Below are positions 352 through 39,755 of a stretch of DNA of 41,897 bases, one piece after another. The stretch comes from a virus. The position numbers and the translations under genes were made by a program. The notes under the pieces were generated by a model. The model was not told where the DNA came from. It saw nothing but the letters and a program-made list of their open reading frames with translations, and made no database searches. The stretch lies in the IMG/VR virus record IMGVR_UViG_3300043640_000065, positions 1-41,897 of that record; one strand, 5' to 3'. Each line of letters starts with the position of its first letter. The first letter of the stretch is position 1.

Positions 352-532
352 CATCTGCGATAAATGCTTAGTAAATATCCTGAAAGCAGCGCAAGGAATC
401 GTACACGCACCTATTGAAGTAGGTGACAGTGTTGATACGGAAGTTGAATTTATGGACGATGGCAACGGGCATAAGTTCAAGCTTTACATGAAGCTTACGA
501 ATGAAGGATCAATCCCAAGCGAAGCAATGTAA
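320..532 (+). CDS. Hypothetical protein (70 aa)
   Basis: ATG at 320 preceded by GAGGAGG (307..313); the 251 start in the ORF track has no SD. Stop TAA 530..532 lies inside palindrome copy 1. Confidence 0.5.
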   Translation: MEQQPAKQVRSICDKCLVNILKAAQGIVHAPIEVGDSVDTEVEFMDDGNGHKFKLYMKLTNEGSIPSEAM

Positions 533-546
533 AACCGCTTTACATT
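526..546. repeat. Palindrome copy 1: aATGTAAA-ACCGC-TTTACATt
   Basis: 7-8 bp perfect inverted arms with a 5-nt loop. Same motif at 4641, 33996 and 35703. Confidence 0.9.
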
Positions 547-3702: not shown

Positions 3703-4641
3703 ATGAATCAAGTCCCGGCAATGCGTGAGAATTTCGCAGTACAACACACCAATAATTTCATGCCTTCGATGCAGGAATTAGAACAACTTGGCCGGCTATG
3801 CCACACACTAGCCCAAGCCCCGTTTTATGCAAAGCTTGGAGCCGGCGGAGTGCTTGCAATCTGGCTAACTGCTAGAGAGCTTAAGTTACCGCCTATGATG
3901 TGCCTTAACGGAGGTTTACATAACATTGAAGGAAAAGTATCCATGAGCGCTCAGCTTATGAATATGATGATTATCAATGCAGGGCATAATATTGAAGTCC
4001 TTTACTTAACCGATCAAGGTTGTGCAATCCGATTTACACGGGTTTACAAAACAGGAAAAACAAAGTCGGACGAATACGAATTCAATATGAAGGACGCACA
4101 CCGAGCTAAATATTTCGGTGAACAGGGGCCAAATGGCACAATGCTATCGAAGCCTAAAGCTAATTGGGTAATGTATCCGCGCGACATGTTCTTTGCTAGG
4201 GCTTTATCCGGAGGAGCTAAAAAGTTTCTTCCTGAAGTCATGATGAATTGCTACGTCTTCGGAGAAATTGAAGACGCGCAAGCCGAAGAAATTCAAGGAT
4301 CACATGAGTTCGTAAATAATATCGTGCCAACTGGTGAAGCTCCAAAAGCTCAAATTGAATTGCCACCAGTTCAACCGGAGCCACCAAAAGAACCTGTAAA
4401 GCCAGTGCCTACAGAGCAAGAGATCTGCGAGTTTAAAGAGAAATTCGGCATAGGAACCGAGTCACTTCATGAAGTTTACTTAGAGGCAATTTGCAAAAAG
4501 TCTAAGAAAAACAAAGATGAAATGATCGTTTGTGCTGCGATGAATGAAGTTGGATTCATTGACGCTTTTAATAAATGGGAATCAGGATTGAAGAAGAAGC
4601 AAGAAGGAAACGAGTCACCGGTCGGGTTAGCCGTTTCCTAA
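3703..4641 (+). CDS. recT: RecT-family single-strand annealing protein
   Basis: Central region (..SMSAQLMNMMI.., ..NWVMYPRDMFFARALSGGAKKFLPEV..GEIED) resembles the RecT core. Pro/Glu-rich linker and C-terminal extension. Confidence 0.65.
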   Translation: MNQVPAMRENFAVQHTNNFMPSMQELEQLGRLCHTLAQAPFYAKLGAGGVLAIWLTARELKLPPMMCLNGGLHNIEGKVSMSAQLMNMMIINAGHNIEVLYLTDQGCAIRFTRVYKTGKTKSDEYEFNMKDAHRAKYFGEQGPNGTMLSKPKANWVMYPRDMFFARALSGGAKKFLPEVMMNCYVFGEIEDAQAEEIQGSHEFVNNIVPTGEAPKAQIELPPVQPEPPKEPVKPVPTEQEICEFKEKFGIGTESLHEVYLEAICKKSKKNKDEMIVCAAMNEVGFIDAFNKWESGLKKKQEGNESPVGLAVS

Positions 4642-4675
4642 TGTAAAGCTGCTTTACATGTAAGACAATCTTACA
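4641..4675. terminator. Palindrome copy 2 (ATGTAAA-GCTGC-TTTACAT) plus an adjoining TGTAAG-ACAAT-CTTACA hairpin between convergent genes
   Basis: Two tandem hairpins fill the 38-bp gap between the recT stop (4639..4641) and the lipoprotein stop (4680..4682). Confidence 0.6.
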
Positions 4676-4679
4676 TTGC

Positions 4680-5024
4680 TTACCTTGGTTGAGCCGGGCC
4701 GTTCATTCCCTTCGGTGTGCCCACCGGAGGGATTCCACTCGGGCCGTCTGCCATAGATAATAAAGTATGTCCATTTAAAGAGCTATTAACTTTTGATAAT
4801 GGAACTACAGGAACTACGGGAGTAACCGGCGCAGGCGTCGGAGTAATTGAAAGAGAGGGGATAGGCGATCCATTTAAGGGAATGGTCGCAGTGACGCTAG
4901 GCTTGTCTTCGTTATCGACGACATCCGAAGCCGTTCCCTCTGTGTGAACCATTGAAATAGTGTAAGTGCAACCAGTCAAGCTAAGCATACTTAGCATTAA
5001 ACTGATTAATAAGCTCTTTTTCAT
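4680..5024 (-). CDS. Lipoprotein (114 aa), Pro/Thr/Val-rich
   Basis: Signal peptide with lipobox LSLTGC. AGAGGGG SD. Last gene of the late block. Confidence 0.7.
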   Translation of the reverse strand: MKKSLLISLMLSMLSLTGCTYTISMVHTEGTASDVVDNEDKPSVTATIPLNGSPIPSLSITPTPAPVTPVVPVVPLSKVNSSLNGHTLLSMADGPSGIPPVGTPKGMNGPAQPR

Positions 5025-18920: not shown

Positions 18921-19340
18921 CAAGTCGGGCGATAATGGGGTCTCTTTCTCCGCTGCCTTCTTTAGCTCCGCGATAATACCGCCGTCCTGAAAAAAATCTG
19001 CAAAGTTTACCTCCAAGACGAATTGAAGAACTCGATAAAGTTCGTTCAAATTGCCGGCAAATTCTAGGTCGATTTTACCCTTGGTCAATTCAGCGCCATC
19101 TTTTCGGACACCTTGCATTAGGTCTAGGACAAGCTTTTCGAAAGTATTTTCATCAAGCTTGTCAGTCAAAAGAGAGATAGCCATCGGGATAGAGCTATCT
19201 TCACCGCTTGCGATCATGGCAGCAAAGCTAGGGCCGACCAATCGCAAAAGGCGCGATTGAATCTTTAAAGCCCTGATTGCCGGCATCTGCGTTACGGAAT
19301 AAACGGCATCGCCAATTTCTTTTTCTTTAGTTTCGATCAT
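18909..19340 (-). CDS. Tail assembly chaperone (G-like, 143 aa)
   Basis: Lies between the tube and tape measure genes. TAATG coupling to the tube gene. Confidence 0.65.
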   Translation of the reverse strand: MIETKEKEIGDAVYSVTQMPAIRALKIQSRLLRLVGPSFAAMIASGEDSSIPMAISLLTDKLDENTFEKLVLDLMQGVRKDGAELTKGKIDLEFAGNLNELYRVLQFVLEVNFADFFQDGGIIAELKKAAEKETPLSPDLKKI

Positions 19341-19774
19341 TAGGGATTCTCTCCGTTACCGCCGATAAAGACGTCCATTTCTGCTAAGTCAAATGCCCAT
19401 GCTCTATTATTGATCGCATTGCCGAAAGCTGAATCCGGAAATTGCTGAATCCATCCAGTCGCTGAGAAAATGATCGTCGTTCCGCTTAAGTCTTTAATCA
19501 GAATTGGAACCACTCCGGCGTTAGCTACGCGGTCGGCATTTAACAAAGCTGAAAGGACATCATTAGAAGGGGACGACTGAGAGAGTGTTAAAGTCATAAC
19601 ACCCCCATAGTTGTTAGTCTTTACACGGGTAGCGTAGCCATCGGCTCCGATTACCTTTGTAAATTGCTGCGTGTCTGCGGTAATTTCAAGGAAAGTACCG
19701 TCAGCGAAGCCACTCATCGGGACTCCGCCTATAGCGATAATAACGCTTTTTGGATCAAATGTGCGTACGGCCAT
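19340..19774 (-). CDS. Tail tube protein
   Basis: 144 aa directly after the sheath. FDPKSVIIAIGGVPMSGFADGTF..TLTLSQSSPSNDVLSAL resembles tube proteins that accompany this sheath type. Confidence 0.65.
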   Translation of the reverse strand: MAVRTFDPKSVIIAIGGVPMSGFADGTFLEITADTQQFTKVIGADGYATRVKTNNYGGVMTLTLSQSSPSNDVLSALLNADRVANAGVVPILIKDLSGTTIIFSATGWIQQFPDSAFGNAINNRAWAFDLAEMDVFIGGNGENP

Positions 19775-19794
19775 TTTAAATGCTCCTTAAATTT

Positions 19795-21975
19795 TTAAAC
19801 TGATACTGTTCCTCTGATAACCACGGCATGAATCGCGCCCGAAAGCGTCGCATTAAACTTAACGTTTCGCAAGATTCTGTTTGCCTTATCAGCCGGCGGA
19901 ACATCAGCAGCTTTTGGAACTGTAGTACGAGGAGCAGGATCGGACGCAAGGAAATCATTTGACACCCCTAGGCTTAACGCTCTCTTTACCTCTGATTCAA
20001 TTACCGCAATACCTGCGTCGGTATATGGTACTTTCGGATTATTCACTAAGACAGAGAATACAAATTCTTGAATCCTAGAAGTCAACCAGTCAACACCTCG
20101 GATAACATCTATGTATTCGCCTTGTGCAACTGTGCCGTTTGCTGTAATTCCAACGCCTCCGACAAACTCATAAGTATTTGCTTTCTTAGCGAGAGCTGTA
20201 TTGCTTTGAGTCGTTGTAAGATTGCTGTATGAAATTCCGGCAAGCGTCTTGAATTTCCAAGTCTCTGAACCCGGCTCCAATGGAAGCACTCGACCGAACC
20301 ATGCAGCCTCTGGATAATCGAAGTCAGCGTCTTGGTGATACATCACGAATGTTCGAACGTAGCCAAGCTGATTAAAGAAGGCTGCGATCGACGCGGTATC
20401 TGTACCGGCAGGAACATTTATAATATTTGGATCACTTGAAGCAGTTCCAAATAATTTAATTCTTGCCTCTGTCCATGCTGCAATAGATTTTACAGTCGCT
20501 ACGTCTCTTGAAGTCGCAATCAGCGCATACCAAGTATTGTTAGCGTTGTTAATCGCTGTCAAGTCGTCTGCAACTGGATTCACTGCAACTAATGGTAAGA
20601 CAGTCAATCCTTTTTCAATGCTTACAACGTCCGGTTGAACACTCAAAGAGAAAGGAATTGTCAGATCATTTGCTATTAAGGTGATCGATCCATCTCCTTC
20701 ATTCGTAGCCGTAACCGGTACAAGCTGAGGAACTGCGTTAATTTCATCTGTTAAGGCTGTGGCTACTTCAAGGCCATTTTGAACCGTTACGAGGGTTGTA
20801 TAATCGTAATTGATTCCGTTGATAGTGATTCGATAAAGCTGATTCGGCTCTACCTGTGTAATCCTGACTTTAGCTTGATTCGGATTGATAATCGTTGAAG
20901 AAGTCTTAAGAGTCCAAGCCACGCCCGGGGTTTTATTAGTCAGGGTGAAAGTTCCGTCCATGTTGTCAGTTGCTGTAACCGGCAAGCCTGGCTGAGGGGG
21001 AGTGTCATTCACACTAGCTACTATATCGGCAGCGATAGAGGCAGCGGTAACGGCTTGCAATGGATTTGTAATCGTTGCAGTCGCTTGAGTTAAACCACCT
21101 GAAACGATATAGCTATTGACTACCGCCGTAGTATTATCCGGGCCTTCTACTGTAAGAGTTCTAAAACTTCCACCTGAAACCACTGCGCTATAAGTCGGGT
21201 GCGCTGCGATAATTGCGTTGGCAATATTTGTCATCGTCGTTTGAGTGTCAACGGAGAAGGCAAAGCCACCTTGTGCAATTGCTGCATCAGGTTGAGAAGC
21301 TCCACTGTTGGTTAAGATCGAATTCAAAACGTTGTTGCCGGCATTAAAGACGATCGTAATTTGTCTTGCTCCTGTAACAGTAGCGGAGCCGACGGCTGCG
21401 TTTCCTGAAATTGCAGTTGCAAGGTTAGCGATCGTTGTTGCTTGGTTTGTCGTAAAAGGAACCGACGCCATATTAGCGTTATTGATTCTAGGGACGATAT
21501 TATTTCCGGTAACGAAGTCAGAATCAAAGTCTACTATTGCTGTATTTACTCCGACTTGGTTTCCGTCAACTGTTACTAAAACTCTATTTCCTGTAACTAA
21601 GTTAGCATTAAGGTTAACAATGCTATATGTAGTCGTCGAGCTAGAGCTTGTAGTTATAATGTCGCCGTTAATATCTAAAATGTAATCTTCGCCAGTCATT
21701 GCCGTTTGAACGTCGATTGTGACGTTGTCGACTTGACGACGGCCGATCGCAATTTGAGGAGGTGAAATTTGCTGAGAAAAAATGTCTTGTGCTGCAATAT
21801 ATTCCGGGTCGGAAGGGGAGAAGTCTTCGGCGACTTCATCCATATCGCTATAAAATCGGATTAGATCCGCGAATCTAATGTTTGAGCCGAGGATCATCGG
21901 AATTCCGAAGCCGGCTTCTGTTACTGTCTGCGTCTGTCTAGTTATGACTACGTCGACGATATCACTTAAAGGCAT
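19795..21975 (-). CDS. Tail sheath protein with a roughly 365-aa insertion of repeated display modules
   Basis: N-terminus MPLSDIVDVVITRQT.. and C-terminal about 275 aa are sheath-like. Position upstream of the tube. GGAGGA SD. Confidence 0.7.
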   Translation of the reverse strand: MPLSDIVDVVITRQTQTVTEAGFGIPMILGSNIRFADLIRFYSDMDEVAEDFSPSDPEYIAAQDIFSQQISPPQIAIGRRQVDNVTIDVQTAMTGEDYILDINGDIITTSSSSTTTYSIVNLNANLVTGNRVLVTVDGNQVGVNTAIVDFDSDFVTGNNIVPRINNANMASVPFTTNQATTIANLATAISGNAAVGSATVTGARQITIVFNAGNNVLNSILTNSGASQPDAAIAQGGFAFSVDTQTTMTNIANAIIAAHPTYSAVVSGGSFRTLTVEGPDNTTAVVNSYIVSGGLTQATATITNPLQAVTAASIAADIVASVNDTPPQPGLPVTATDNMDGTFTLTNKTPGVAWTLKTSSTIINPNQAKVRITQVEPNQLYRITINGINYDYTTLVTVQNGLEVATALTDEINAVPQLVPVTATNEGDGSITLIANDLTIPFSLSVQPDVVSIEKGLTVLPLVAVNPVADDLTAINNANNTWYALIATSRDVATVKSIAAWTEARIKLFGTASSDPNIINVPAGTDTASIAAFFNQLGYVRTFVMYHQDADFDYPEAAWFGRVLPLEPGSETWKFKTLAGISYSNLTTTQSNTALAKKANTYEFVGGVGITANGTVAQGEYIDVIRGVDWLTSRIQEFVFSVLVNNPKVPYTDAGIAVIESEVKRALSLGVSNDFLASDPAPRTTVPKAADVPPADKANRILRNVKFNATLSGAIHAVVIRGTVSV

Positions 21976-30391: not shown

Positions 30392-31750
30392 TTACCTTGC
30401 CAGTGCTGTTAAATTATAGCTATTTGAGTTAATCATAAGAAAAGCACCGCTGAGAGCATCCACAATGTCATCGTGTTTGCCTTCTGGAAAGTTTTCAAGC
30501 TCTCGAAAAAAATCATCGTTCCATTTTCCACGGAGTATCTTAATATTCCCTGCCTCGGCTTGCGCACTTACGGGGGACGCACGCGTTACCTTATCTTTCT
30601 GAACCTTGTTTCTACGCACATTATATCCCTGCAATAACCTTGTCAAGTGATCTGCTTCGCTAACGCCGGCTTGTCCCGGATCTTCTTCAACACCGATTCT
30701 AACTTGAATGGTATCGCGTATAGCTGTGTTTTTTATAACAGTCTGCACGCCTAGGGGACTGTCTTGTATTCTTACCATATCGGTGATATAAAGAATATTA
30801 TTTATATCCTTTTCAATTTTTATTCCGACAGTAAAATCGGGATCATTCGTTTCAGTCTTCTTCGTAGCTGCTCGATCCCAATACCGCACACGATCAACGG
30901 TTTTAGGGATAGCATCGACAATCTCAAAGTATCCCTTTTGAAAGTAAAGGCCGGCACTGGGCTTGATATTCCAATTTCCATTAAGCAAGCGTTCGCGTTC
31001 TACACGGGGGAGCGCGTGCAAATTGGCTAGATAACCGGGATCGGCAGCGAGTAGTTTTTGATTATCAAAGATAGAGGCCGAAATAAAAGTGAAGGACTTC
31101 GGAAGGCATTCGGGATATTTTTCATGTAAAGCAGCTTTACTTTCACCCCAAATAATTTCATCGTTAAGCTGAATGAAGTAGCGAATCTTTCCGGATCTTT
31201 CCGGAATTGCTAGGCCGGTTTCTCCGTCAATCCACCAATCAATGAATTCCCTCACCCACGAATCGGCATCCGGGTTAGTAGTCGCCCGAATGTATGGCTT
31301 TACTCCGCAGGTCGACCGATTACGGGACATCATATAGAAAAACTGCGCGCGCGTGAAATGCGTCAGCTCATCGAAGATAATTAAAGGAATCTGCGCGCCT
31401 TGCCAAGAAAGCACATCGTTTTCATACTGCAAGTGCGCAAATTTAACCGTCGAAGGCGTAGGAAAATCCCACTCTAAGGTCGTTTCTTTTGGTACGCCTC
31501 CTAAATGAGGATTGGAATAGATTTGCATAGACGTATCCCATAAACCGCCTTGGTTTCTTACCATCGTTGAATTACGACGAAAGATCACTGTACCGAAGTG
31601 CGGTACATGCAAATGAAAGATTGGCTCTAAGAGTACGGCAAATGTTTTACCAGCTCCGGCAGCGCCTCCATAAATGCAAATGTCAGCCCGGCATTTAAGG
31701 AACTTAGTTTGAGGCCCTCTCTGTGGCCCTATGCCATCTTCTCTTTTCAT
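30392..31750 (-). CDS. terL: Terminase large subunit
   Basis: Walker A GGAAGAGKT, Walker B-like LIIFDELTHF, C-terminal nuclease-like acidic motifs. ATGA coupling to TerS. Confidence 0.85.
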   Translation of the reverse strand: MKREDGIGPQRGPQTKFLKCRADICIYGGAAGAGKTFAVLLEPIFHLHVPHFGTVIFRRNSTMVRNQGGLWDTSMQIYSNPHLGGVPKETTLEWDFPTPSTVKFAHLQYENDVLSWQGAQIPLIIFDELTHFTRAQFFYMMSRNRSTCGVKPYIRATTNPDADSWVREFIDWWIDGETGLAIPERSGKIRYFIQLNDEIIWGESKAALHEKYPECLPKSFTFISASIFDNQKLLAADPGYLANLHALPRVERERLLNGNWNIKPSAGLYFQKGYFEIVDAIPKTVDRVRYWDRAATKKTETNDPDFTVGIKIEKDINNILYITDMVRIQDSPLGVQTVIKNTAIRDTIQVRIGVEEDPGQAGVSEADHLTRLLQGYNVRRNKVQKDKVTRASPVSAQAEAGNIKILRGKWNDDFFRELENFPEGKHDDIVDALSGAFLMINSNSYNLTALAR

Positions 31751-33337: not shown

Positions 33338-33562
33338 TCATAATTCGCATACTCTTTCATTTTGCGAGTAAAATCTAACTATCTCATGGAAATCGTCTAA
33401 CATTTCTTTTTGTGTTGAGTACTCTAACTCATTCCAGTAACTACACGATCCTTGCTCTGATAGCATATTCATGCAAAAAATGATCTTATTAGTATCTGGC
33501 TCACAATAAAAGTCCGTGCAATTGTTAAGGTTGATAGCTAAACAATCTCTGACCACTAGCAT
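33338..33562 (-). CDS. Small paralog family member c (74 aa)
   Basis: MLVVRDCLAINLNNC..STQKEMLDDF. 7-nt overlap with the upstream gene. Confidence 0.45.
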   Translation of the reverse strand: MLVVRDCLAINLNNCTDFYCEPDTNKIIFCMNMLSEQGSCSYWNELEYSTQKEMLDDFHEIVRFYSQNERVCEL

Positions 33563-33996
33563 TTGACAACCTCGATATTTATAGGGTATAGCTCTTCGAC
33601 TTGTTTCTTTTTCATAATGAATAAGGGTGTCGACATACCCTTTACGTCGACAAAAGCAACTGACCCATCAGCATAAAAAACCTGAAAGTCGACAAAGTAT
33701 TTAGTATTTCCCGGCAGATCGAAGGGGACTTGCCTAAGAAAGAAAACGACATCACCGTTTTTCTGTAAAGCTTGCAGCTTGAAATAGTAGCTTCGTTCTG
33801 CTTTTGATCCGAACTTGATCGAATCGGCCTCGCATCTCTTGGCTGAAAACTTATGCTTCTTTCGCTTGCTGACTTGGCAGGCAACGCAGCAAAAGACTCG
33901 GTTGACTCCTTTCTCTAATGTCAAACACGGGCTTCCCGTATTAGAGTCAAAGACGAATGGATTCTTGCAAGCATAGCATGTGTAATCAAGTTTCAA
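33556..33996 (-). CDS. Zn-ribbon + DUF1064-like (PD-(D/E)XK-type) endonuclease
   Basis: CYACKN..CCVACQ, then FGSKAERSYYFKL..GDVVFFLRQVPFDL..YFVDFQVFYADGSVAFVDVKG. The only available start is TTG, abutting palindrome copy 3. Confidence 0.55.
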   Translation of the reverse strand: MKLDYTCYACKNPFVFDSNTGSPCLTLEKGVNRVFCCVACQVSKRKKHKFSAKRCEADSIKFGSKAERSYYFKLQALQKNGDVVFFLRQVPFDLPGNTKYFVDFQVFYADGSVAFVDVKGMSTPLFIMKKKQVEELYPINIEVVKC

Positions 33997-34019
33997 TGTA
34001 AAACCGCTTTACATGTAAA
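33996..34019. repeat. Palindrome copy 3 (ATGTAAA-ACCGC-TTTACAT) extended by the 12-bp palindrome TTTACATGTAAA
   Basis: Seen directly. Sits between the stop at 34022 and the TTG start at 33996 on the minus strand. Confidence 0.9.
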
Positions 34020-34021
34020 GT

Positions 34022-34195
34022 TTAGGCGCCGGTAAAAGGCACTTGCTGAACTTCACGATTAATAAATTCAGGATAAAATAAAGGGATAGCCTGCAACCAG
34101 TCGTAAGATTCTTGCTGATTAAGCGTGACGCTTACGATCTTTCGGTACGCAGTGCAACCGTTTAAGTAATTTTCAATGAGTACGTAGCAAAACAT
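34022..34195 (-). CDS. Small ORF (57 aa), below the ORF-track cutoff
   Basis: ATG preceded by GAGGAGAAGGGG. Hand translation: MFCYVLIENYLNGCTAYRKIVSVTLNQQESYDWLQAIPLFYPEFINREVQQVPFTGA. Confidence 0.5.
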   Translation of the reverse strand: MFCYVLIENYLNGCTAYRKIVSVTLNQQESYDWLQAIPLFYPEFINREVQQVPFTGA

Positions 34196-34211: not shown

Positions 34212-34460
34212 TTAAGTTAAGCCCACTGTATCCCTTTCTAAATTATTTTTGGAATAATTAGAAAAGAACCAATCAAAAAAGTCCTGCTTAATGCAAATAA
34301 CCTTTTTCCCTATCTTTACGAATGGTGGCCCTTGGCCTTTTTTCCTCATCCGATAGATCGTTTCTTTGTGAATGCCTAAAATAGAAGCGACGTCCTTGTC
34401 GCTCAACGTTGGATTAGGAAACAGTGTATTGACGTTATCAATAAATGTTTCTTGGATCAT
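34212..34460 (-). CDS. AlpA/excisionase-like helix-turn-helix protein (82 aa)
   Basis: LSDKDVASILGIHKETIYRMRKKGQGPPFVKIGKKV. ATG 34460 preceded by GAAGAGGTAAGG (the track start at 34493 is GTG). Confidence 0.6.
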   Translation of the reverse strand: MIQETFIDNVNTLFPNPTLSDKDVASILGIHKETIYRMRKKGQGPPFVKIGKKVICIKQDFFDWFFSNYSKNNLERDTVGLT

Positions 34461-34476
34461 CCTTACCTCTTCAACT

Positions 34477-34506
34477 ACTTTAACGGTTTTCACGGGTTTT
34501 CGTCAA
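34477..34506 (-). promoter_or_regulatory. Candidate leftward promoter (TTGACG-18-TAAAGT) for the HTH gene and late block
   Basis: Hexamers on the minus strand. Shares the 11-mer ATGTTGACGAA with the promoter region at 36828..36838. Confidence 0.35.
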
Positions 34507-34805: not shown

Positions 34806-35051
34806 ATGACAGAGATTGAAGGAATGGAACTACCGGAGGGCGCTAGCCCTTCACCTTCTCAAGACATAAGAACACTGCTGCATAACGGAAAGATTATGCA
34901 ATATTGCGCAGTCATGCAAAGAAAGCTGAATGCAATCCATATCCTGCGTTCTGACGGGATTATCTCCGATAAAGAGTATTACATACTAAGGCATCGCATT
35001 ATGCGAGCAGCGAACGAAATAGGCCCCTTAAAGATGGAGAATGACCAATGA
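34806..35051 (+). CDS. Hypothetical protein (81 aa)
   Basis: ATG 34806 follows the upstream TAA with a GTGAGG SD; the track start at 34794 is GTG. Confidence 0.5.
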   Translation: MTEIEGMELPEGASPSPSQDIRTLLHNGKIMQYCAVMQRKLNAIHILRSDGIISDKEYYILRHRIMRAANEIGPLKMENDQ

Positions 35052-35389
35052 TCGAAACCATTAGCTATAAAGAAAGACAAGACATAGAACGAATGATTAA
35101 AGAAGGCCATCCCGGAAGCATGATCGCAGCTTTCTTAGGTCGATCACGCAACGGGATCAATACCGAGATAAGAAAGAACGGAGGACGCGAAACCTATAAC
35201 GCTCGCGAAGCTCAAAAAAGATCCGATTCAGTAAGGGAGATTCAGAATAGGGCAGTCAGTGAAAAGCTCAAAGGTAGACCCGATTCTTTCGGTATGCACT
35301 CTAGGATTATCGCCCTAGAGCAAGCTTTAATCTCTCTTAGCCTAGAAGTAGAGAAGCTTAAAAAGAATAGGGTAGTCGTGGAAAAATAG
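35048..35389 (+). CDS. HTH DNA-binding protein (IS30-N-terminal-like HTH) with coiled-coil tail
   Basis: ERQDIERMIKEGHPGSMIAAFLGRSRNGINTEIRKNGG. ATGA coupling. Confidence 0.55.
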   Translation: MIETISYKERQDIERMIKEGHPGSMIAAFLGRSRNGINTEIRKNGGRETYNAREAQKRSDSVREIQNRAVSEKLKGRPDSFGMHSRIIALEQALISLSLEVEKLKKNRVVVEK

Positions 35390-35407
35390 GGTACTGAGTA
35401 CCCTTTT
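35388..35407 (+). terminator. Rho-independent terminator
   Basis: AGGGTAC-tga-GTACCCT followed by TTT, starting within the stop codon of the HTH gene. Confidence 0.7.
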
Positions 35408-35475: not shown

Positions 35476-35502
35476 TTGCTAACCACAACAAAAGGTTAGC
35501 AA
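35476..35502 (+). promoter_or_regulatory. 9-bp stem hairpin covering the SD and first base of the start codon of ORF 35502
   Basis: TTGCTAACC-acaacaaaa-GGTTAGCAA. The right arm contains the AAAGG-proximal SD region and the A of ATG. Confidence 0.5.
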
Positions 35503-35708
35503 TGACAAGATATATTCCACTTCCAAAATGGAATCAATTTCATCAATGGCCACCGATCGGAGGTCTAAGGCATTTAGTCTATGAAAGGGAAAAAAACGGA
35601 TTCGATAAAGTTCTAAAGCGTCCAAGTCGTGTATGGTTAATCGACGAAGACGCTTTTTTTGAATGGCTCAAGGAAAGAGAATTCAAATGGAAAGAAAAGC
35701 CAATGTAA
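35502..35708 (+). CDS. Small excisionase-like DNA-binding protein (68 aa)
   Basis: ..WPPIGGLRHLVYEREKNGFDKVLKRPSRVWLIDEDAFFEWL. Stop TAA lies inside palindrome copy 4. Confidence 0.5.
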   Translation: MTRYIPLPKWNQFHQWPPIGGLRHLVYEREKNGFDKVLKRPSRVWLIDEDAFFEWLKEREFKWKEKPM

Positions 35709-35721
35709 AGCGGTTTTACAT
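35703..35721. repeat. Palindrome copy 4 (ATGTAAA-GCGGT-TTTACAT; inverted relative to copies 1 and 3)
   Basis: Seen directly. Both convergent genes end with ATG-TAA inside its arms. Confidence 0.9.
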
Positions 35722-35955
35722 CTTCCTTTCACACGGGAGGCTTTCAGGCACGAATAAATGAAAGTCTCTCGCCTCTCGATCATTTATGAATACACCGCTA
35801 ACGATCGTTGCGTTTCCTGTAGCGTGATATTCCGGGTTGTCTTGAACTTCTCTTATAGCTTTGGCTACCGCGTCTTGTTGTGACTCTGCTTCCACTTCAA
35901 CAGTGAAAAAGCTTTGAGCTGCGACGTTTACTTTCCATTTTGGATACTTAGGCAT
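35716..35955 (-). CDS. Hypothetical protein (79 aa)
   Basis: AGGGGA SD. Stop lies within palindrome copy 4. Confidence 0.5.
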   Translation of the reverse strand: MPKYPKWKVNVAAQSFFTVEVEAESQQDAVAKAIREVQDNPEYHATGNATIVSGVFINDREARDFHLFVPESLPCERKM

Positions 35956-36867: not shown

Positions 36868-37890
36868 TTATGTGCCGAAGTTTCCATGTAAACTCATGTA
36901 AAGTCCGCCTAAGCAATCTCTAAATGACGAAGCATCCATATTGAGGCTAATGTCTTTTGCTGAATTATTCCTATCAATAACATATTTGTCCTTAATTTCT
37001 AAAGTTCCCCATTGAAGTTCTTTTGAAAACTTTCTTGCGTAAGCTGCGTTAAGGTCTGAATTCGTTCCCCTGCAATCGTGTTCGTTATTCAAAAGGTGAC
37101 GATAGAAAGCAATTTTAGACTTTTTGATCTTCAACTTTGGATCTTCAAGCTTGTGAATGAAGTGCGCGTATGTGTCTTCAAGCTTCTTACGTGTGAAAGT
37201 GTGAGCTAAGACGGATAAGACTTCATCATCGATAACGCCTTTCTCATTGGTTAGATCAAGTCCTAGAAGCCATTGAAAAGTTTCCTCTTGAGCTTCAGGT
37301 CGCTTATGTCTTCGACCTCTAACATCAGGGTCTTGTTTTCCTTGCGAAGCTGCCAATGCCTTAGAAGATGAAATTGAAGAAGGCAATGCCTTCATAGCCT
37401 TTGGTTTATTAGGCATTGGTTTATTAGGCATTGGTAGTGGCTGGATTACCGGGCCCGGGTTTACCGGCGACGGATTTTCCCTTTCCGGTTGGGAGGCTTG
37501 TACTGGTAATGCTTTGTGAAATTCCCTTTCTTTCTCAGTTGTTTTCTTTCGGCTCTTAGGTAGCTCCCAAACAGGATTTTTAAATTTTTTCTTGAAGCTC
37601 ACCTTATAGATAAAGTGTCCCCATTCTCCTTTATTTCGAACCTGTGTTCTTGTAATGAATCCTAAATTATAAAGTTCTCTAATCGCACGTGTCATTTTGT
37701 CTTTACCCCATCCAAGAAGGTGAGCAGTAAAACGACCGTAGACTTTCCATGTATCAGAATTTGAGTGAAGGTGAACGAGTAGCCGATAAGCTGCGTCGCT
37801 TATTGTGCTGTCATTGGTGATAGAGTCGAAGACTAAAACATATCCGTCTTTGTAGTCTTCTTCGTCTAACTCGAAATGTGTTTCAGACAT
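36868..37890 (-). CDS. Replication initiator / replisome organiser-like winged-helix protein
   Basis: N-terminal ..AYRLLVHLHSNS..LLGWGKDKMTRAIRELYNLGFITR.. (wHTH). Pro-rich linker with PMPNKPMPNK. Confidence 0.55.
   Translation of the reverse strand: MSETHFELDEEDYKDGYVLVFDSITNDSTISDAAYRLLVHLHSNSDTWKVYGRFTAHLLGWGKDKMTRAIRELYNLGFITRTQVRNKGEWGHFIYKVSFKKKFKNPVWELPKSRKKTTEKEREFHKALPVQASQPERENPSPVNPGPVIQPLPMPNKPMPNKPKAMKALPSSISSSKALAASQGKQDPDVRGRRHKRPEAQEETFQWLLGLDLTNEKGVIDDEVLSVLAHTFTRKKLEDTYAHFIHKLEDPKLKIKKSKIAFYRHLLNNEHDCRGTNSDLNAAYARKFSKELQWGTLEIKDKYVIDRNNSAKDISLNMDASSFRDCLGGLYMSLHGNFGT
37401..37435. repeat. 15-bp tandem repeat x2.3 (TTGGTTTATTAGGCA) inside the initiator gene
   Basis: Seen directly. 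Encodes PMPNK-PMPNK. Confidence 0.9.
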
Positions 37891-38515: not shown

Positions 38516-39016
38516 TCATTTCTTATGCCCCCCGAATAAATCATATAACTCCGGGCATGGATAAGCCTTGATTAGGGCTTCTCTTATCAGGTCGTTAGGC
38601 TGCACAATTCCGCCGGATTGAGTGCTTGCTAATAGAGCTTGCTTCTGAATGTAATCATAGTGCCTCTGCTCTAGAGTAATGCAAAGAGTCTTAGGATTCT
38701 TTATGCGTTTTTTCTTGGTGACTTTACCGGGTGGCCGTTCATCTGTAACGCGAGGGCGCCCCTGCCGGACATACCCCCACTTGCAATTATGCTTACAGAA
38801 ATGAATCTTCTTATCTATGCGAATGAGGGCGTTACAGTTCTCCGGCATCTCACCCATATCTTGAAGAAACGGAATAAAATCTGTCCATAGCAGATCGAAA
38901 GTTATTCCCTTCGCCCCGTGATTCCTGTAACCGGGATAGTTCTTCTGCTGGCAGTTCTGCTTCATCCTCCACCATGCTTGATATTCTCTCGAAGTGCTGT
39001 TCGCGTGCGTCGTCAT
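38516..39016 (-). CDS. DNA-binding protein: N-terminal Y-x2-W-x2-M-x2-(N/R)C type domain + C-terminal ribbon-helix-helix-like module
   Basis: SREYQAWWRMKQNCQ..YRNHGAKGITF..W.DF..FLQDMG, then CITLEQRHYDYIQKQA...NDLIREALIKAYP. Confidence 0.55.
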   Translation of the reverse strand: MTTHANSTSREYQAWWRMKQNCQQKNYPGYRNHGAKGITFDLLWTDFIPFLQDMGEMPENCNALIRIDKKIHFCKHNCKWGYVRQGRPRVTDERPPGKVTKKKRIKNPKTLCITLEQRHYDYIQKQALLASTQSGGIVQPNDLIREALIKAYPCPELYDLFGGHKK

Positions 39017-39464
39017 CTTTTGACCTCAAGTCTGTTCTTACCGGCCAAGCACGGACAAGGGATCGACTAATTTGATCCTCTACCTTCATTCCGTGTCGTT
39101 CCGCTCGGTCTTTTATTATTATGTAATTCTCAATCGGTAGCGTAACTGATACCGTTGCATAGGTAATATTCTTCTGAATAGACGGCATAAGCGTTTGCTC
39201 ATGATTTAAAGGATTCAAAGGGTGATCCTTATTTGCATGTATTCGAGCGTGACAATTCGGACAAACCCACATGACATTAAGGGGATCGCCGTAGTTAGTA
39301 TGGTGTGCCTGCATTGCTTCATGCTGACAGGAACAATTTTCGCAAATGTCCGGGCGAACTAATTCACCAGCTTCAACCGCATAAAATACGGCCAAGCGAG
39401 CAGAGCGCTTAACTCTGTAGTCGTAAAGATCATTCGGATCGATGGTAAAAGTAGTTGTTTTCAT
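38850..39464 (-). CDS. HNH-type zinc-finger protein + ribbon-helix-helix-like module (the last roughly 55 codons overlap the next gene)
   Basis: CENCSC..AHHTNYGDPLNVMWVCPNCHARIH, then VSVTLPIENYIIIKDRAERHGMKVEDQISRSLVRAWP. AAGG SD. Confidence 0.5.
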   Translation of the reverse strand: MKTTTFTIDPNDLYDYRVKRSARLAVFYAVEAGELVRPDICENCSCQHEAMQAHHTNYGDPLNVMWVCPNCHARIHANKDHPLNPLNHEQTLMPSIQKNITYATVSVTLPIENYIIIKDRAERHGMKVEDQISRSLVRAWPVRTDLRSKDDDAREQHFERISSMVEDEAELPAEELSRLQESRGEGNNFRSAMDRFYSVSSRYG

Positions 39465-39531: not shown

Positions 39532-39732
39532 TCACAAACGATGAATTCCTACAGGGTGAGACTCCGGAACGACTAGGCGATCCGTTGCCTCTTCGATCCG
39601 TTTTGCAATTTTCGGATCGATTGGAATATTTCTTTTAACTTTCCAAATGACTTGCCTTGAGCAATCGATTAAAGTAGCGAAAGAGTTGGTTGTCATATTT
39701 TTTTGCCGAAGCCAACATTCTAAATTTACCAT
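39532..39732 (-). CDS. Cro/CI-type HTH regulator (66 aa)
   Basis: ATG 39732 preceded by GGAGACG. ..MTTNSFATLIDCSRQVIWKVKRN.. Divergent from the rightward early genes. Confidence 0.55.
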   Translation of the reverse strand: MVNLECWLRQKNMTTNSFATLIDCSRQVIWKVKRNIPIDPKIAKRIEEATDRLVVPESHPVGIHRL

Positions 39733-39755
39733 GCTTACGTCTCCGTTTTGCATCC

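Follow-up and report, generated by a model that had tools for sequence, protein, structure and literature searches.

The 41,897-base-pair (bp) window analysed here, which covers positions 1 to 41,897 of the virus record IMGVR_UViG_3300043640_000065 in IMG/VR, carries four copies of a palindrome, ATGTAAA-N5-TTTACAT, and raises the question of what reads this sequence. A preliminary description, made from the letters of this DNA, had placed the copies at the borders of four functional blocks and had offered three readings: a DNA-level protein-binding site, a bidirectional terminator or a module-junction recombination sequence. We found that, among one genome each of 185,579 species, the site occurs almost only in Chlamydiota, and that it clusters around the replication origin in three large contigs of metagenome-assembled genomes (MAGs) and in three complete Chlamydia genomes. 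On balance it appears probable, as far as sequence comparison can tell, that the palindrome is the recognition site of a dimeric host protein of the origin domain, centromere- or parS-like in kind, which is carried by chlamydial phages.

In order to define the site, we searched the window with the pattern ATGTAAANNNNNTTTACAT. It matched exactly four times, at the positions given by the preliminary description: 527-545 (loop ACCGC), 4641-4659 (GCTGC), 33996-34014 (ACCGC) and 35703-35721 (GCGGT). Base composition predicts about 6 × 10−4 matches in the window, and none was seen in 100 dinucleotide-preserving shuffles of it. Pooling all copies revealed that the conserved unit is longer than this pattern: it spans 19 bp, as two palindromic 9-bp arms separated by a single free base, ATGTAAAGC-N-GCTTTACAT, or, with the variants included, ATGTAAA(G/A)C-N-G(C/T)TTTACAT. 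Only positions 1, 8, 12 and 19 vary, the core TGTAAA...TTTACA being essentially invariant, and none of the arm changes in the variant sites is compensated on the opposite arm. The shared loop ACCGC/GCGGT, previously read as extra conservation, is really a G-to-A change at position 8 in one arm. The family is sharply bounded. Five sites of the window differ from the full consensus by at most one mismatch and none by two to four, and one megabase of related viral loci contains 143 sites with no or one mismatch and only 13 with two or three. Beyond the 19 bp, the flanks of different copies are unrelated. The half-sites listed earlier are all present (4658-4676, 34013, 36886/36896 and 39778).

The distribution of the site was then determined in several sequence collections. 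In the host scan, which covered one genome per species (185,579 species, 596 Gb), the pattern ATGTAAARCNGCTTTACAT was found in at least 120 stretches, and nearly all of those among the matches listed were MAGs of Chlamydiae. A complete scan of the same genomes for the single 19-mer ATGTAAAACCGCTTTACAT gave 85 stretches, about 4 being expected by chance: 49 are assigned to Chlamydiae, Chlamydiales, Parachlamydiales, Rhabdochlamydiaceae or Protochlamydia, 25 are unnamed MAGs, four are 'Verrucomicrobia' or Acheromyda bins, and seven belong to other phyla. True Chlamydia were added by a further scan, namely C. crocodili and Chlamydia sp. 12-01, all as complete genomes. Neither 50,697 GenBank phages nor 72,556 PLSDB plasmids contain an exact copy, and a near-identity search of the whole window against the same phages gave no match. 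In four stretches of Varibaculum (Actinomycetota; L150, L178, L363 and L426), ATGTAAAGCAGTTTTACAT recurs with extended conserved flanks (tat...atc..gaaaacgtgtaaaaaaat); this looks like a different, longer repeat family that contains the 19-mer by chance.

In IMG/VR, ATGTAAARCNGCTTTACAT was found in at least 118 stretches. Many of those listed derive from contigs of 35-43 kb, the flanks of their sites being unrelated, and among them two unrelated lineages of tailed phages carry the site: one is myovirus-like; the other, of about 38-40 kb, is podovirus-like, and its portal, terminase and head genes are unrelated to those of the window. The lineage related to the window (loci L001, L005, L031, L050, L057, L069, L071, L115 and L117) shares 23-80% amino-acid identity with it in structural and early genes. 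From the presence of the motif, these uncultivated relatives and the window phage probably have chlamydial hosts, the window phage itself very probably belonging to environmental chlamydiae. The variant preferred in the window (AAC-C-GC/GC-G-GTT) is closest to that of 'Chlamydiae bacterium OFTM343', and the G+C content is 40-46% across the window versus 41-43% in the OFTM343 blocks; variant form and G+C content together would hint at this bacterium as the nearest host. A contig from a chlamydial bin that bears two homologues of window ORFs (L198; ORF, open reading frame) was considered as a prophage and turned out to be a region rich in insertion sequences with no clear prophage. The 42-kb contigs behind L288 and L291 are unrelated to the window.

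On chlamydial chromosomes, the sites lie 4-40 kb apart on both sides of the origin, and most 8-kb blocks hold a single site. A switch of the GC skew from negative to positive is the signature of a replication origin. In contig JACKPP010000001.1 (937 kb) all of the at least 20 sites fall between 404 and 883 kb (P ~3 × 10−5), and the skew, calculated in 8-kb blocks, is negative from 404 to 692 kb (one block being about zero) and mostly positive from 714 to 883 kb (two being negative). OFTM343 contig 37 (200 kb) holds 14 sites, with a skew that is negative to 109 kb and positive from 124 kb. In OFTM358 contig 7 (490 kb), the nine sites all lie at 258-483 kb, the skew being negative to 342 kb and positive from 363 kb. 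Each of the three complete genomes has a pair of sites between which the skew flips: 244,671 and 282,369 in C. crocodili 26-06, 295,090 and 332,798 in C. crocodili 8-02, and 338,831 and 376,544 in Chlamydia sp. 12-01. In C. crocodili, the rpoN stop codon is overlapped by the left site, which lies at a convergent junction, and recC is close to the right site. We take this rpoN/recC region to be opposite the plasticity zone, which in Chlamydia sits at the terminus, in agreement with the origin assignment. In the chlamydial locus L193 (2409-2488), an oxidoreductase gene has at its 3' end an exact site, which is followed by a terminator-like hairpin and, 60 bp away, by a degenerate site (TTGTATTGCGGCTTTACAT) just upstream of an asparagine-synthase-like gene; this paired layout is kept in several genomes (also L124, L156, L182, L205 and L229).

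About half of the chlamydial sites are found inside long housekeeping genes (RecB-like, PBP2, PDH E1-alpha, SecDF, PutA, Wzz-type kinase), where they are read in two frames, as CKAALH or as VKxLY(I/M). Orthologous positions carry identical sites, although the flanks have diverged. Identity of the sites in two reading frames amid diverged flanks points to selection on the DNA. The genes next to the chlamydial sites are diverse, and a small regulon with one recurrent neighbour was rejected. A palindrome that is near-invariant, read as sequence, tolerated in genes, phylum-wide and present every 4-40 kb around the origin behaves, in our analysis, as a centromere or an origin-domain site would.

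We then examined the setting of the copies in the window. Site 1 (ATGTAAAACCGCTTTACAT, 527-545) lies between co-directional genes of the + strand; the TAA stop codon of ORF 251-532 is within its left arm, and an isolated consensus half-site, GCTTTACAT (481-489), lies 38 bp upstream. Site 2 (ATGTAAAGCTGCTTTACAT, 4641-4659) occupies the convergent junction of a RecT-like gene (3703-4641) and the leftward late operon (4680-5024), and shares a 2-bp overlap with a degenerate partner palindrome, ATGTAAGACAATCTTACAT (4658-4676). Site 3 (ATGTAAAACCGCTTTACAT, 33996-34014) separates two genes of the - strand, ORF 34022-34195 and a DUF1064/resolvase-like gene (33556-33996), and its right arm is overlapped by an extra ATGTAAA half-arm (34013-34019). 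Site 4 (ATGTAAAGCGGTTTTACAT, 35703-35721) fills the second convergent junction, with the stop codons of ORF 35502-35708 (+) and ORF 35716-35955 (-) within its arms. A one-mismatch site, ATGTAAAGCAGCTTTACTT (31124-31142), is located within the gene of the terminase large subunit (30392-31750, Terminase_6N/6C), and a probable decayed remnant, ATTTAAGGAGCATTTAAA (19775-19794), in the gap between ORFs 19795-21975 and 19340-19774. All four exact sites belong to the 12.5-kb early and replication arc. The density of sites in the phage, about one per 8-10 kb, matches that of the densest host regions.

Gene direction switches four times in the window, at two convergent junctions (4641/4680 and 35708/35716) and two divergent regions (34493/34598 and 39753/39820). 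Stop codons lie inside or touch the arms at both convergent junctions, and neither divergent region contains a full site. If four sites were placed randomly among the ~70 junctions, both convergent ones would be filled with a probability of ~0.0025. The idea that the copies border four functional blocks is only partly borne out: two of them fill the only convergent junctions of the genome, and the other two lie between co-directional genes.

Relatives of the window carry the motif, and not at arbitrary intragenic positions, since 76% of the sites in the viral loci are intergenic. The site at the convergent RecT/tail junction is kept in the window (4641), in L005 (2205) and in L031, although the RecT proteins are only 34-36% identical. 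Alignment of this junction limits the conservation to the site and a few neighbouring bases. In L031 the junction holds a tandem pair (7169 and 7194), of which the second site deviates by a single mismatch in the outermost base. At the junction between the sheath and tube genes (ORFs 19795-21975 and 19340-19774), four relatives have an exact site, and the probable remnant in the window now bears the ribosome-binding site. The site in the terminase gene is exact at the homologous place in L071, the window mismatch being non-synonymous. Maintenance of the RecT/tail site in spite of divergence, together with the exact sheath/tube site of four relatives, indicates purifying selection on the site in phages, judging from these alignments.

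The genes flanking the RecT/tail site are syntenic in distant relatives, which shows that this site is not a mosaic breakpoint. This bears on a third class of function, a recombination or mobility sequence, which would act as a short identical linker for module exchange between co-infecting phages or mark the place at which a mobile element or homing endonuclease acts or has acted. The unrelated flanks, the location at gene boundaries and the differences between relatives in the sites present at some junctions are compatible with such a sequence, as are the HNH endonuclease genes that are common in carriers, one of them in the window (38850-39464). However, synteny runs across both the RecT/tail and the sheath/tube sites, neither target-site duplications nor conserved flanks were seen, and of the 26 HNH genes a single one is found 60 bp or less from a site. 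The loss of the sheath/tube site in the window looks like mutational decay and not excision. Copies are moreover identical at orthologous chromosomal positions across diverged species and are clustered at the origin. The earlier suggestion of a module-junction sequence also conflicts with other relatives, which carry sites inside operons, and we regard a recombination function as highly improbable. For a repeat of the REP (repetitive extragenic palindrome) or MITE (miniature inverted-repeat transposable element) type, which would have conserved flanks or terminal repeats, target-site duplications and a genome-wide spread, the unrelated flanks, the orthologous copies and the confinement to the origin region do not fit. 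One copy per 4-40 kb near the origin only is equally unlike a DNA uptake sequence (DUS/USS), which is present about once per kb genome-wide, has an asymmetric core and frequently forms inverted pairs.

An RNA-level role, as a bidirectional transcription terminator or as a hairpin for mRNA 3'-end formation or processing, would fit the position of the sites. Apart from being mostly intergenic, they occupy 9.1% of the convergent and 6.2% of the co-directional junctions in the viral loci, versus 2.4% of the divergent ones. In many cases the upstream stop codon is within an arm and the next ribosome-binding site lies 5-12 nucleotides past the site. In the window, each convergent junction holds a site and no other element, and on the minus strand copy 4 extends to a hairpin of -13.3 kcal/mol, followed by a U-rich stretch. 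In contrast, the core hairpin is weak, with an A/U-rich stem of 7-9 bp, energies of -3.4 to -7.6 kcal/mol and z-scores mostly above -2. As stated in the preliminary description, no T-tract follows any copy in the window, and a terminator scan called none of the sites. The same scan found a canonical element, a perfect 7-bp G+C-rich hairpin at 35388-35404, directly 3' of ORF 35048-35389, which it called terminator-like on both strands; the phage thus has a conventional terminator-type element that is distinct from the palindrome family.

Changes in the stem speak against an RNA function as well. They are never compensatory, and on the transcribed strand G-U versions occur as often as A-C ones. 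Between + genes of the viral loci the asymmetric variant occurs 10 times forward and 10 times reverse, and between - genes 7 times in each orientation. This confirms the earlier remark that the orientation does not follow transcription, and argues against a strand-specific RNA role. No Rfam family matched the window at the gathering score, which, with the lack of compensatory changes, is not what a structured RNA would give. Conserved sites inside long housekeeping genes and in the phage terminase gene do not suit a terminator, nor would clustering at the origin be expected of one. With position arguing weakly for it, and hairpin strength, U-tract and scan arguing against it, a bidirectional terminator or processing hairpin seems to us unlikely.

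Several relatives show noteworthy arrangements around their sites. ParB_N-domain (PF02195) genes adjoin sites, at a distance of 0-710 bp, in L069 (2219-3611), L015 (2250-2819) and L096 (6939-8177). L069 has two such genes in tandem, the stop codon of the second being inside the site, just upstream of the terminase genes. In L051 (9702-9803) a 45-bp unit is repeated 2.3 times, each full unit comprising one exact site and one TTGTAAAGCC half-site; an A+T-rich gap contains this array, which precedes a TTGACA-17-TATAGT promoter-like element and whose layout recalls plasmid centromere arrays such as F sopC. In two other viral loci, L021 (~2975-2997) and L114 (~1645-1666), the site starts right after a sequence that resembles the 3' end of a tRNA (GGTTCGAATCC...), which may be a phage tRNA gene or an attP-type tRNA fragment.

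These arrangements are relevant to the possibility that the palindrome is an operator of a phage-encoded regulator. A helix-turn-helix (HTH) protein of the window, or a ParB_N-type protein, would then control or insulate operons, and the chlamydial copies would be bound by a related host protein; the conserved inverted repeats (CIR) of phiC31, the stoperators of Cluster A phages and the KorB operators are the models. In favour of this, copies are spread across the early third of the genome, cooperative binding is suggested by half-sites and by sites in tandem, three relatives have ParB_N genes beside sites, and the L051 array places two sites upstream of a strong promoter-like element. Against this, the divergent promoter regions of the window have no full site. 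Among motif carriers, the product of ORF 34212-34493 has no relative, and those of ORFs 35048-35389 and 39532-39753 have one or two. The carrier lineages share essentially only the HNH domain, and ParB_N was not found among the window ORFs submitted to Pfam or PHROGs. A search for a single DNA-binding family common to all motif-bearing viral loci likewise yielded only this HNH domain, common to the window and the podovirus-like group, and it is not adjacent to sites. The identical site also serves in host chromosomes. Sharing between two lineages and host chromosomes, the absence of an orientation rule and divergent regions without a full site are not the properties of a repressor operator or stoperator. 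We consider a phage-encoded operator system rather unlikely.

Concerning the binder, the HTH and ribbon-helix-helix (RHH) proteins of the phage itself, named in the preliminary description, are poor candidates: the motif is common to two unrelated lineages and to Chlamydiota, and the DNA-binding proteins of the window are not widely shared. Comparison of the carriers suggests that a host factor, or a factor shared with the host, is a more likely binder than these HTH proteins. The Euo repressor was considered and set aside, as the chromatin immunoprecipitation sequencing paper on it gives no motif and nothing ties Euo to the origin. CcpA cre sites, LacI-family operators, LexA boxes and sigma-70 -35 elements, considered as well, either have the wrong spacing or leave no room for a -10 element before the next start codon.

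A DNA-level protein-binding site, the first of the original suggestions, is therefore the reading that we retain, as the sequence is invariant, changes are not compensatory, the variant is blind to the direction of transcription and half-sites stand beside full sites. We further propose, tentatively and at somewhat less than an even chance, that it is a non-canonical, so far unrecognised centromere or origin-domain site of Chlamydiota, carried by tailed chlamydial phages to hijack the machinery that organises or segregates the host origin. The phage keeps four to five copies in non-coding slots at gene 3' ends, including both convergent junctions, onto which the host origin-domain protein would load after entry. 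The loaded protein may be a clamp of the ParB/KorB type; such a clamp is considered because the central AGC-S-GCT of the palindrome is the core of the KorB operator. In line with a non-canonical site, a search for canonical parS (TGTTNCACGTGNAACA) that allowed up to 2 mismatches gave no match in 2.27 Mb of mostly origin-proximal chlamydial loci, nor in the window or the viral loci. The phage might gain host-type positioning or segregation of its DNA, insulation of convergent and adjacent transcription units by protein roadblocks, or titration of the host protein. The match to the KorB core and the ParB_N genes beside sites in L015, L069 and L096 are leads, not proof of ParB-type binding.

Several points weigh against a centromere-like site of the host origin domain. 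The palindrome, with 19 bp and an odd centre, is unlike the 16-bp parS, and its outer bases are unlike those of the KorB operator. A role in termination would likewise account for the preference that the phage copies show for the 3' ends of genes and for convergent junctions. No ParA, ParB or KorB was detected among the ~50 ORFs of the window submitted to Pfam or PHROGs. Regular-expression and tblastn searches for DnaA and ParB in the sampled chlamydial 8-kb blocks, which cover about half of each origin region, found neither. Since the loci sampled yielded no parB, canonical parS may still form a separate cluster beside that gene elsewhere. The origin assignment is based on GC-skew polarity, and gene-strand bias, used as a second test of origin versus terminus, gave no independent support. 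The hosts are assigned by the motif alone; a terminase-based search for prophages in genomes returned only relatives of 44-54% identity in unrelated phyla and was uninformative on the host. For three of the collection scans, the counts are lower bounds.

We compared the site with known systems. It resembles the chromosomal parS sites of ParB (Spo0J), a protein that loads as a CTP-dependent clamp, in being a near-invariant palindrome found phylum-wide, with a few to a few dozen copies around oriC that are tolerated in coding regions and would be recognised at the DNA level by a dimer. It differs from them in sequence and centre (19-bp odd-centred versus 16-bp TGTTNCACGTGNAACA), in that binding by ParB is putative here and in that no parB was seen near the sampled sites. 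MatP-bound matS sites of the E. coli Ter macrodomain and the Noc sites of B. subtilis are short, sharp palindromes that are bound by dimers and mark one chromosomal region tens of kb apart. The chlamydial site is likewise sharply defined, regional and present both in genes and between them, but it is origin-centred, whereas matS is a marker of the terminus and Noc sites occur over most of the chromosome, the terminus excepted. We know of no report of phages that carry matS or Noc sites as a lineage trait.

Intergenic motifs of other phages include the Cluster A mycobacteriophage stoperators, the 17-bp palindromes of Cluster O and the phiC31 repeats, those of Cluster A and phiC31 being read by a repressor. 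They share with the present site the many near-identical short copies in intergenic gaps. Unlike it, they are cluster-specific and have phage proteins as binders, and stoperators, being asymmetric, are aligned with the direction of transcription; the palindrome described here is symmetric, free of orientation, common to separate lineages and present in hosts.

The nearest parallels come from mobile replicons. KorB of the IncP-1 plasmid RK2 is a CTP clamp of the ParB family that acts both as a centromere protein and as a global repressor, with the operator OB, TTTAGCSGCTAAA (PMC11790492, PMC2680271). This 13-bp operator is also an odd-centred palindrome and its central 7 bp, AGC-S-GCT, are identical to ours. 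Its copies are also dispersed over a mobile replicon at operon boundaries; a dual role in partition and silencing would be an extrapolation in our case. The outer arm is TGTAA here and TTT in KorB, so that the full 13-bp operator is not matched. KorB and IncC genes were not detected among the window ORFs submitted to Pfam or PHROGs, and the sites avoid divergent promoter regions and also mark a host chromosome. For the plasmid-prophage N15, Ravin and Lane reportedly described in 1999 four sites scattered over the genome. These centromere sites, IR1-IR4, are bound by the SopB of N15 itself (PMC7205306). Among phages, N15 is the nearest precedent for dispersed centromere palindromes. The likeness is one of layout, since in a phage genome of similar size a single palindrome recurs about four times at scattered positions instead of in one array. 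The difference is that N15 encodes SopA and SopB, whereas no partition genes were found here and the site is presumed to be that of the host chromosome.

Full-text literature searches did not turn up the motif, nor a parS described from chlamydiae. As a class, palindromes of the centromere or operator type are known; what is new is the sequence itself, its confinement to a single phylum and its presence in phages without the cognate genes. Chlamydiae divide without FtsZ and have a developmental cycle. If our reading is correct, Chlamydiota would have their own origin-proximal centromere-like site, through which the organisation and segregation of their chromosomes could be approached directly. 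A phage that carries a chromosome-organising site of its host but not the genes of the matching protein would be following an unusual strategy, since the closest cases known to us, N15 and RK2, bring their own ParB-type protein. One short DNA word would further assign more than 100 uncultivated phage genomes of 35-43 kb, from two lineages, to chlamydial hosts, and the motif would serve as a simple marker by which a large set of uncultivated tailed phages could be tied to a phylum of obligate intracellular bacteria about whose phages almost nothing is known. To our knowledge, the isolated phages of chlamydiae are Microviridae only. On phages of chlamydiae, the literature search turned up a single relevant paper, which reports only unclassified viruses with Chlamydiales as their predicted hosts (PMC12644861).

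The remaining genes of the window include those of a PD-(D/E)XK exonuclease (918-1541), an HTH_17 protein (34212-34493), an HTH_38 protein (35048-35389), a replication initiator (36868-37890), an HNH protein (38850-39464, - strand) and a Cro-like HTH protein (39532-39753); no tRNA gene was found, nor an integrase among the ~50 ORFs submitted to Pfam or PHROGs. RecT and the exonuclease form a pair. The phage may be lytic, or it may be a temperate phage-plasmid that does not integrate. In the podovirus-like carriers, several free-standing genes of HNH endonucleases are inserted within the structural operons (L101, 5469-6062 and 7564-8148, and others; 26 members in 20 loci). In the window, ORFs 38516-39016 and 38850-39464, both on the - strand, overlap by 167 nucleotides in different frames, the upstream one encoding the HNH-type endonuclease (CxxC...HH...N...CxxCH). 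Their homologues adjoin each other in L057, and the overlap may be real, or reflect a later start of the downstream ORF or a frameshift.

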